A DNA stretch of 32,000 nucleotides. Origin: Desulfuromonas sp. Lineage in GTDB: Bacteria > Desulfobacterota > Desulfuromonadia > Desulfuromonadales > Geopsychrobacteraceae. The stretch lies in contig PKUD01000123.1 in NCBI GenBank assembly GCA_002869695.1, positions 30,540-62,539 on the forward strand, given 5' to 3'. The notes beneath the pieces are model-generated. The model saw nothing but the letters and a program-made list of their open reading frames with translations, was not told where the DNA came from and searched no databases. A program made the position numbers and the translations under genes. Shown piece by piece: positions 14,953 to 16,428 of this stretch. Within the stretch, counting starts at the first letter, position 1, and every line of letters starts with the position of its first letter.

Positions 14953-15255
14953 TCAACAGCAGTTTGAATCGTTGCTGCAGTCACAGTTCGGTTCGGAGCC
15001 GGACAACCAGCCCTTGATGATTGCACTGGCACAGCCGACTCCGGCTTGCACCTGAAGGGCTTCTGCGGGACAGTTCAGGGCACATCCACCACATTCAATA
15101 CAGGCATCACCATCAACAACCTGTGCCTGGTTGTCCTTGAGGGTGAATACGCCGTGCGGACAGACTTTTTCGCAGACCCCGCAACCAATACATTTGCTCT
15201 GGTCAAGCTGCAACGTTGTAACGTTCTTCAGGTATCTGAGTCCAACCGGTTTCAT
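14953..15255 (-). CDS. hgcB: Mercury methylation ferredoxin HgcB (2x[4Fe-4S])
   Basis: About 100 aa. Two CX2CX2CX3CP motifs (CIGCGVCEKVCP, CIECGGCALNCP), conserved GVGCA cysteine, Cys-rich tail NCDCSNDSNCC ending in a vicinal Cys pair. Directly downstream of hgcA. The ATG at 15255 has better SD spacing (AAGGA + 6 nt) than the ATG at 15261. Confidence 0.88.
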   Translation of the reverse strand: MKPVGLRYLKNVTTLQLDQSKCIGCGVCEKVCPHGVFTLKDNQAQVVDGDACIECGGCALNCPAEALQVQAGVGCASAIIKGWLSGSEPNCDCSNDSNCC

Positions 15256-15282
15256 CTGCATTCCTTACCCTAAATACTTCTG

Positions 15283-16428
15283 TTAAAAGGCCGTTGTCAG
15301 CCACAGGACACCCGCGGTTAAAAGCGCACCTGCCTGGAGCGGAATCGAGATCCGCATCTCTTTTTCCACCCCGGAAGGGGAGGTGAATGTACTGGAACCG
15401 GTAAAGTTCATTGCCGTATAGGATGAAACGGTGCTGACAAAAAGATAGAGTGCGGCCAGTCCTGGGAGAGATGTCCCGCGATAGAGGGTCAGGATCAGGA
15501 CTGTCGAAAATATTATGCCGAGCAGCGCCCCCTTGGCAGAAAAAAGGCGCCCCGGTATCCAGGGGAGCAGGATTGGCATAATCACCGCACCGCTGAGAAC
15601 ACCTGTCAAGCCGGCAAGCAGGGCGGCCAGTCCACGGCTCCACGCCGCATTGAAGGAAAAATAGTCTTCACCGATGCCGCCGAGCAGCAGGAGTGCAACG
15701 GCCATATAAAGAACAGGCTTACGCATTCCGGTCAGTTCAACCGGTGTCAGGATAAACCGCTCCCGAGTCGAAAAGGTCACGCGACGCATTTTTACTGTTG
15801 CCTGCATGTCTGCAGCAATGAACTCAGGGATATCCGCAGCCCTGACCGGGCCATAGCTAACCGAAAAGCCGGTGGCCTGCTTGACCTTGTGCGCGGCCAC
15901 GCCAGGCGCCCCCAGTTGGGGGACGATCAGTGTTTTGTGACTGACGAGCTTTTCCAGTTGACTGGTCTGGCAGCGATAGATGATTTCTTCTGTGCCGAAA
16001 GTTCCTTTTCCGGCAGCACACCACACGTTGACGCCCCTGGTGTCAATTACCAGGATCCAAGCAGAAATGCCCGAAATTGCAGAGCGCAGGCAGTCAAAGC
16101 TGAGCTTGTAATTAGCAGAAACCAGCACCGGTGAGAGAGGGTCTGGTTGTCCTACGGCATATAGCCCCGGGGTGATCTGATAACGTGACCTGCCGATTCC
16201 CCAGCGCATCGCCCAATGTCCCAAATGGTCGCGATGAACAAGTCGGGTCGAGACCAGTGGCACCGATCCTGCTGCTGTGTTCAGCCAGTCGGTGACAAAG
16301 GGATAACGCGCGAAGCCGGGTTTCTCATCAGGTGAGTGTCCGCAGCATGGCTGTGCCGGCTGTTTGTCAGTCCGATAATCATTCTGCTGCACCTCTTTCG
16401 GCTGGCAGCAATTTTCCGAATCCGGCAT
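15283..16428 (-). CDS. hgcA: Mercury methylation corrinoid protein HgcA (CFeSP-like corrinoid-binding domain plus 5-TM domain)
   Basis: 381 aa. Cap-helix signature NVWCAAGKGTFG (codons 16006-16029 cover NVWCAAGK), matching the HgcA motif N(V/I)WCA(A/G)GK. The C-terminal about 150 aa form five hydrophobic helices. Followed by hgcB. Confidence 0.9.
   Translation of the reverse strand: MPDSENCCQPKEVQQNDYRTDKQPAQPCCGHSPDEKPGFARYPFVTDWLNTAAGSVPLVSTRLVHRDHLGHWAMRWGIGRSRYQITPGLYAVGQPDPLSPVLVSANYKLSFDCLRSAISGISAWILVIDTRGVNVWCAAGKGTFGTEEIIYRCQTSQLEKLVSHKTLIVPQLGAPGVAAHKVKQATGFSVSYGPVRAADIPEFIAADMQATVKMRRVTFSTRERFILTPVELTGMRKPVLYMAVALLLLGGIGEDYFSFNAAWSRGLAALLAGLTGVLSGAVIMPILLPWIPGRLFSAKGALLGIIFSTVLILTLYRGTSLPGLAALYLFVSTVSSYTAMNFTGSSTFTSPSGVEKEMRISIPLQAGALLTAGVLWLTTAF

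Follow-up and report, generated by a model that had tools for sequence, protein, structure and literature searches.

We analysed a window of 32,000 nt from a contig of Desulfuromonas sp. (PKUD01000123.1, assembly GCA_002869695.1, positions 30,540-62,539 of the forward strand), which carries two adjacent genes of the mercury-methylation family, hgcA and hgcB. All positions given here are those of the window, and both genes are read from the minus strand. The hgcA coding sequence (15283-16428) runs from an ATG start to a TAA stop and encodes a protein of 381 aa, which matches the NCBIfam model HgcA_corrinoid; a first-pass annotation of the same DNA had given identical coordinates and length. The hgcB coding sequence lies at 14953-15261, where the longest open reading frame (ORF) encodes 102 aa. 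Translation probably begins at the second ATG (15255), which yields a protein of 100 aa. This ATG is located six bases after a TAAGGA Shine-Dalgarno sequence, a better spacing than that of the 102-aa start, and the gene callers of JGI, ENA and Logan also pick it. The two possible starts leave 21 nt (longest ORF) or 27 nt (start at 15255) between the genes, which accounts for the range of 21-27 nt in the first-pass annotation. Each of the 32 related genome loci likewise has hgcB immediately downstream of hgcA on the same strand. The source is an uncultured member of the Desulfuromonadales, listed in GenBank as 'Desulfuromonas sp.' and represented by a metagenome-assembled genome (MAG). We conclude with high confidence that the locus is the canonical two-gene hgcAB pair of this organism; we observed directly that the proteins belong to the family, that all the catalytic motifs and the domain architecture are present, and that gene order and synteny are conserved.

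The family assignment was made with profile searches. The first-pass annotation had proposed a search with curated hgcA and hgcB profile hidden Markov models (HMMs), and both proteins scored well above the respective cut-offs. HgcA reached 440.4 bits against the equivalog model HgcA_corrinoid (NF040863; cut-off 275), covering profile positions 1-323 of 325, and HgcB reached 128.1 bits against the equivalog model HgcB_ferredoxin (NF040864; cut-off 99), covering positions 1-93 of 93. Pfam, by comparison, detected only the generic CdhD domain in HgcA (PF03599, 46.6 bits, aa 84-203) and only Fer4 domains in HgcB, and this is the reason why older pipelines mislabel hgcAB genes. Such mislabelling had been expected for this pair, and the GenBank entry for HgcA is indeed titled 'hypothetical protein C0619_08110'. 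The Pfam result might suggest that HgcA is an ordinary subunit of a corrinoid iron-sulfur protein (CFeSP; AcsC/CdhE or AcsD/CdhD) of the Wood-Ljungdahl acetyl-CoA pathway, lying beside an unrelated ferredoxin, all the more so as, among its relatives, only CFeSP large subunits have experimentally determined structures. However, the model for the gamma subunit of acetyl-CoA decarbonylase/synthase gave HgcA only 74 bits, compared to its cut-off of 306, and covered aa 83-208 only.

The cap helix separates HgcA from CFeSP at a single residue. The motif NVWCAAGK (aa 134-141) is encoded at 16006-16029, with the TGT codon of Cys137 at 16018-16020, exactly where the first-pass annotation had placed both, and Cys137 is predicted to be the axial thiolate ligand of cobalt. 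The HgcA family motif N(V/I)WC(A/S)(A/G/S)GK, with its strictly conserved cysteine (Cys93 in ND132, a strain of Pseudodesulfovibrio mercurii, also listed as Desulfovibrio desulfuricans), is present in the window protein, and NVWCAAGK is one of six high-stringency motifs (PMC10087281). All of the 120 best database relatives carry N[VI]WCA[AG]GK, and residues N134 to F144 are invariant in an alignment of 48 sequences. When aligned with the CFeSP of C. hydrogenoformans (PDB 2h9a), Cys137 falls on Thr374 ('NVWCAAGKG' versus 'SVLTAWAAG'), and replacement of this cap-helix threonine with cysteine is the substitution that defines HgcA (PMC7305189). The distinction from CFeSP that the first-pass annotation had drawn from the motif is therefore upheld by this alignment, as well as by the failure of the gamma-subunit model.

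The CFeSP-like segment of HgcA (aa 84-208; 15805-16179, minus strand) was delimited by the Pfam CdhD match, by alignments with PDB entries 2h9a, 4c1n and 4djd, and by Foldseek. A sequence search of solved structures returned CFeSP large subunits only, aligned over aa 84-208, and no experimental HgcA entry. In the Foldseek comparison, the similarity to CFeSP chains was confined to the corrinoid-binding domain (root-mean-square deviation, rmsd, of 2.6-3.0 Å over 126-130 columns). With the CFeSP large subunit (AcsC/CdhE; 2h9a, 2ycl, 4djd) HgcA shares a cobalamin-binding Rossmann-like domain and the position of the cap helix, at 27-31% identity over about 128 columns (rmsd 2.8-3.0 Å). Unlike HgcA, CFeSP has the threonine in place of the cysteine, lacks a membrane domain, includes a TIM barrel as well as a [4Fe-4S] domain at its N-terminus, and acts in the acetyl-CoA pathway.

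An AlphaFold model of HgcA built with 48 homologues (mean predicted local distance difference test score, pLDDT, of 85; predicted template modelling score, pTM, of 0.78) shows a disordered N-terminus of about 40 residues, followed by an alpha/beta corrinoid-binding domain and five long helices. In our reading, the CFeSP-like cobalamin-binding domain spans aa ~56-208 and is tethered to five transmembrane helices. The transmembrane domain (aa 221-380; 15289-15768, minus strand), as delimited by hydropathy and DSSP, begins with an amphipathic linker helix at 221-234, and the five membrane helices follow. The long helices were assigned by AlphaFold/DSSP to residues 236-249, 259-290, 296-314, 321-343 and 351-380, mostly with a pLDDT above 90, and the C-terminal half is hydrophobic by hydropathy analysis, in line with the five hydrophobic helices claimed in the first-pass annotation. 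The best Foldseek match in the PDB was 9a0b_A, a deposited integrative model of the ND132 HgcAB complex (E = 4e-23, 48% identity, 323 columns). A five-helix membrane domain is absent from CFeSP, and together with the HMM cut-off and the Thr-to-Cys change it rules out CFeSP identity for HgcA. Domain scans of 30 window ORFs also revealed no acs or cdh genes in the 32 kb, and we give the CFeSP explanation next to no chance.

HgcB is a dicluster, 2x[4Fe-4S], ferredoxin with a Cys-rich tail. The architecture attributed to it in the first-pass annotation, namely about 100 aa with two CX2CX2CX3CP clusters, a GVGCA cysteine and a terminal vicinal pair, was recovered in full. The first cluster motif, CIGCGVCEKVCP (aa 24-35; 15157-15192, minus strand), and the second, CIECGGCALNCP (aa 54-65; 15067-15102, minus strand), both have the CX2CX2CX3CP spacing, and the second reads CIECGG. 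The cysteine spacing equals the ND132 numbering plus four (PMC7305189), so that Cys 20, 23, 26, 30, 50, 53, 56, 60 and 73 of ND132 correspond to Cys 24, 27, 30, 34, 54, 57, 60, 64 and 77 here. Cys77, in the sequence GVGCAS (codon 15031-15033, minus strand), is the equivalent of the essential Cys73 of ND132, while the C-terminal vicinal pair Cys101-Cys102 (14956-14961, minus strand) is equivalent to Cys94/95. In the tail, EPNCDCSNDSNCC, Cys93 and Cys95 precede this terminal pair. The conserved cysteine about 12 residues past the second cluster and at least one C-terminal cysteine are both present. As a side observation, an hgcB homologue in a Desulfobacteraceae MAG (20BLK6-1.bin.79, locus L027, 4324-4575) has an in-frame TGA at the position equivalent to Cys73 (GVG*AS), which agrees with Haft and Gwadz's description of an HgcB with selenocysteine.

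A second alternative is that the pair belongs to the HgcAB-like paralog class, the members of which are normally fused, and the tested carriers of which do not methylate mercury. The HgcAB_like fusion model does match both proteins in part (193 bits for HgcA, 57 bits for HgcB), but both scores are below its cut-off of 285, and far below those reached with the true HgcA and HgcB models. Moreover, the window contains two separate ORFs, with a TAA stop, a spacer of 21-27 nt and a Shine-Dalgarno sequence belonging to hgcB itself, and the 48% identity of HgcA to the ND132 model likewise argues against the paralog class. The model scores and the separate ORFs rule out a fused HgcAB-like paralog at the sequence level, and we consider membership of that class extremely improbable. 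The first-pass annotation had named a grouping with canonical CFeSP or with the fused class as grounds for refutation; the profile scores speak against both, and none of its proposed refutation tests that were run went against the interpretation.

The canonical HgcA of the window begins with an N-terminal extension (aa 1-48; 16285-16428, minus strand) that contains two vicinal cysteine pairs, C7-C8 (16405-16410, minus strand) and C28-C29 (16342-16347, minus strand). Residues ~1-40 are predicted to be disordered, with an AlphaFold pLDDT of about 50-60. At least one CC unit is present in the extension of 109 of the 120 best relatives, in which the number of units ranges from 1 to 7, often in the form CCPP, and G38, V45 and W48 are invariant or nearly so among 48 sequences. 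According to Haft and Gwadz (bioRxiv 10.1101/2022.07.06.499078), a PCUGP selenocysteine motif is carried on an N-terminal extension in most HgcA proteins, those of ND132 and Geobacter sulfurreducens (GSU1440) included, with CC in its place in some homologues. The window peptide QPCCGHSPDEKPGFARYPFV aligns with APCUGPRPDPRAGVFEKPGYAVEPFV of ND132, as quoted in bioRxiv 10.1101/2022.07.06.499078: 'QPCCGH' lines up with C-U in the extensions of ND132 and GSU1440, and EKPGFARYPFV with EKPGYAVEPFV. The arrangement of PC(U/C)G upstream of an (E)KPG(F/Y)...PFV segment is thereby found in the window HgcA. Judged by these alignments, the window extension is the cysteine form of the published selenocysteine motif. 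A selenoprotein form of the window HgcA was considered and rejected: reading the extension requires no TGA, and the ORF begins 15 nt after the stop codon of the preceding gene, aroG.

The extension is missing from the public record of this protein. GenBank PLX91121.1, titled 'MAG: hypothetical protein C0619_08110 [Desulfuromonas sp.]', is 100% identical to the window HgcA but only 333 aa long. Its start is a CTG at codon 49, that is 48 residues late, and the record is left without both Cys-Cys pairs and without G38, V45 and W48. By contrast, the 381-aa product was called alike by JGI, ENA and Logan, and is also recorded in MGnify, from several samples. An exact look-up in the contig index found the 381-aa form and gave nothing for the 333-aa form. 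At least four public metagenome samples or runs contain the same sequence, JGI 3300007102 and SRR5894287 being examples of the source samples, and a literature search with the accession PLX91121 returned no matches. Among the relatives of HgcA, which number at least 7993 in the protein database at E <= 1e-20 in a search limited to 8000 candidates, the truncation is seen again: the 333-aa relative P0037 likewise starts too late, as tblastn found residues 4-381 encoded in its contig, and the 336-aa relative P0109 looks likely to have been truncated in the same way. With PLX91121.1 both unnamed and started too late, a conserved Cys-Cys arm that matches a published selenocysteine motif has been lost from the record.

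ND132 was compared by way of residue numbers from the literature, peptides of the extension given in the preprint, and the 9a0b model. The window pair resembles that of ND132 (DND132_1056 and DND132_1057) in gene order, in the combination of a corrinoid domain and five transmembrane helices with a dicluster ferredoxin, in the cysteine of the cap-helix N(V/I)WCA(A/G)GK motif, and in an HgcB that ends in Cys-Cys. It differs in that the extension has Cys-Cys (QPCCGH) where ND132 is reported to have PCUGP, with selenocysteine from UGA, and in a second CC pair at residues 7-8 of HgcA. The window HgcB further differs in two extra tail cysteines (CDC), and in reading CIECGG instead of CMECGA or CIECGA. 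With G. sulfurreducens PCA (GSU1440, GSU1441) the window shares the order-level lineage, the gene pair and an extension that aligns as PCCG...PGF...WL.T.AG, whereas GSU1440 is reported to carry selenocysteine in PCUGP. The closest relative is the Desulfuromonadales bacterium MAG TamC13-07 (protein P0002, locus L031), the HgcA of which is 80% identical over all 381 aa and has both CC pairs, next to an HgcB that also reads CIECGG. This 80%-identical protein has already been named by NCBI, in the current Prokaryotic Genome Annotation Pipeline, as 'mercury methylation corrinoid protein HgcA'. The TamC13-07 neighbourhood is identical from gcvT to a CitMHS transporter, but it represents a different species-level genome, with flanking genes mostly 85-97% identical and hgcA and hgcB at 80% and 77%.

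The chemistry of the window HgcAB can be inferred by homology from work on ND132, in which a SAM-dependent two-step mechanism with Co-thiolate ligation was described in vitro in 2024 (PMC11588087). Every residue required by the ND132-based scheme is present in the window proteins. In this scheme, the two [4Fe-4S] clusters of HgcB would reduce the HgcA-bound corrinoid to Co(I), which S-adenosylmethionine (SAM) would methylate to methyl-Co(III); the thiolate of Cys137 would be the lower axial ligand. The methyl group would then pass from methyl-Co(III) to Hg(II), probably presented as a bis-thiolate by Cys101/102 of the HgcB tail with Cys77 as a relay, and CH3Hg+ would be released at the end of the cycle. 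Flexible tail cysteines of HgcB, together with Cys73, have been proposed to deliver Hg(II) and to remove CH3Hg+ (PMC7305189). Possibly, both Cys-Cys pairs in the N-terminal tail of HgcA help to present Hg(II). Since every tested organism with unfused hgcA methylates mercury (PMC10087281), it is a reasonable prediction that the source bacterium makes methylmercury.

Several points weigh against a canonical, methylating pair. The HgcB motif CIECGG fails the text motif C(M/I)ECGA, with glycine in place of alanine; the latter was used as a high-stringency HgcB text criterion by Capo et al. 2022 (PMC10087281). The same CIECGG occurs in the closest relative (L031), CMECGG occurs in L021, and most other relatives have CMECGA or CIECGA. 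We did not take CIECGG as excluding HgcB, because the protein scores above the HgcB profile cut-off and has all the cysteines; it is a conservative variant of a convenience motif. In the cofactor-free AlphaFold model, cap-helix residues 137-141 have a pLDDT below 50. The source organism is known only from metagenomes, and a 32-kb window is too small to judge corrinoid supply, expression level or mercury uptake. Finally, methylation seemingly is no detoxification mechanism (PMC7305189), so that it may be a side reaction.

The DNA surrounding hgcAB is of housekeeping character. In window order, a methyl-accepting chemotaxis protein gene is followed by tig-clpP-clpX-lon, a gene for a CitMHS transporter, thiE-thiH-thiG-thiS/F, a conserved 107-aa ORF, hgcB, hgcA and a gene for an aroFGH-type 3-deoxy-D-arabino-heptulosonate 7-phosphate (DAHP) synthase, here called aroG. 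The remainder comprises yggT and divIVA, which are divergent, folD and gcvT-H-PA-PB, a gene for a TonB-C protein, pta, and pilus or type II secretion genes. No mer-family Pfam domain (merR, merA, merB, merT, merP) was present in the 30 window ORFs scanned, 29 of which were of at least 120 aa (most smaller ORFs, and antisense ORFs overlapping clear genes, lay outside the scan), which agrees with the first-pass annotation that had seen no merA, merB or merR nearby. Domain scans of the same 30 ORFs also found no ArsR-like or other dedicated regulator near hgcAB.

The gene immediately upstream of hgcA is aroG (16444-17499, minus strand), identified with Pfam and NCBIfam. Its stop codon lies only 15 nt before the hgcA start, which suggests that aroG is probably co-transcribed with hgcAB. 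A consensus scan found no terminator-like site in the 15-nt gap, and in the region 14300-18000 the promoter and terminator consensus scan gave site counts at chance level. We regard aroG as genomic context, outside the methylation machinery. Many methylators are described as having an ArsR-like regulator upstream of hgcAB, a position taken here by aroG. McDaniel et al. 2020 reported amino-acid synthesis genes among the neighbours of hgcAB, and an upstream regulator in 112 genomes; a published linkage of aroG or DAHP synthase with hgcA was not found in our literature search.

The arrangement (gcvT-)folD-divIVA / aroG-hgcA-hgcB recurs in about 15 genomes of Desulfuromonadales / Geopsychrobacteraceae, indicating that this clade has inherited hgcAB vertically, at a constant place in the chromosome. 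In loci L001-L008, L010, L011, L013, L031 and L032, aroG is directly upstream of hgcA and on the same strand, and it is so in none of the more distant genomes. The conservation of hgcA and hgcB is among the lowest in this syntenic block. Identity to L031 is 80% for hgcA and 77% for hgcB, against 93-96% for aroG, thiG, folD and divIVA, and only thiE (76%) is lower. Compared to L001 and L005, they are about 61-63% identical, with aroG, folD and thiG at 81-89%, and thiE, thiSF and the 107-aa ORF about as divergent as hgcAB.

Could the hgcAB pair be genuine and nevertheless yield negligible methylmercury in this lineage, owing to low expression as a passenger of aroG, to a lack of corrinoid, or to a native substrate other than mercury? 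The relatively low conservation of hgcA and hgcB within the block would be consistent with this, as would the lack of a dedicated regulator nearby in the window ORF scans. Expression is extremely low even in ND132, at about 0.0004% of total protein (PMC11588087). On the other hand, all the catalytic residues are intact and invariant, about 15 diverged genomes have kept the pair at the same chromosomal site, which speaks for selection, and no tested carrier of unfused hgcAB fails to methylate mercury (PMC10087281). We therefore consider negligible methylation unlikely, and retain a canonical hgcAB pair, predicted to methylate mercury, as our interpretation.

It is tempting to speculate further that in this clade hgcAB is an unregulated, vertically inherited passenger of a housekeeping aroG transcript, and that Hg(II) is captured by the all-Cys arm of HgcA, in place of the PCUGP selenocysteine arm found in ND132 and Geobacter. 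We put this forward as a tentative proposal, which may hold but is more probably incorrect in this combined form. If the arm has this role, the number of CC units and the switch from selenocysteine to cysteine would tune the affinity for mercury and the methylation rate. If hgcAB is a passenger of aroG, it would be expressed constitutively along with aromatic amino-acid synthesis, and these bacteria would then be methylators at all times.

The locus marks an uncultured Desulfuromonas-type population as a likely methylmercury producer, and is relevant to the reading of hgcA surveys of the environments from which the source population comes. For such surveys, an HgcB with CIECGG would fail a literal C(M/I)ECGA filter. 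Earlier work has already described the family and its motifs, as well as its occurrence in Desulfuromonadales and the CC/CU extension at the N-terminus, and the locus adds no new principle. Mercury methylation by Desulfuromonadales is itself established, and iron-reducing bacteria were reportedly the subject of work by Kerin and colleagues in 2006.

Some minor observations concern the flanking genes. On the plus strand, divergent from hgcA and about 3 kb away from it, folD is found with a complete gcvT, gcvH, gcvPA, gcvPB cluster (19343-24627). The folD gene has the same relative position in 13 related loci and gcvT in 7, the other gcv genes having been outside this search. A link between hgcAB and this folD/glycine-cleavage one-carbon cluster was not adopted, as the cluster is divergent and some 3 kb off, with yggT and divIVA in between; the proximity is probably coincidental, because SAM, and not methyl-tetrahydrofolate, is reported as the methyl donor (PMC11588087). 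An ORF of 249 aa at 17654-18403 (minus strand) was dismissed as an antisense artefact of yggT (17693-17980, plus strand) and divIVA (17987-18517, plus strand).

On the other side of hgcAB, the conserved 107-aa ORF (14576-14899, plus strand) is without a Pfam or NCBIfam match, and is 85% identical in L031 and 43-58% identical in L001, L003, L005 and L010. It belongs with the thi cluster rather than with hgcAB, since it stays beside thiS/F, and divergent, even where extra DNA parts it from hgcB. Within that cluster, a ThiS-like domain is fused to ThiF (13457-14371, minus strand; about 268 aa from the likely start), followed by a separate thiS and then by thiG, thiH and thiE. Assembly L033 has two gene calls in place of the ThiS-ThiF fusion, pointing to a frameshift or to a difference in assembly at that place.

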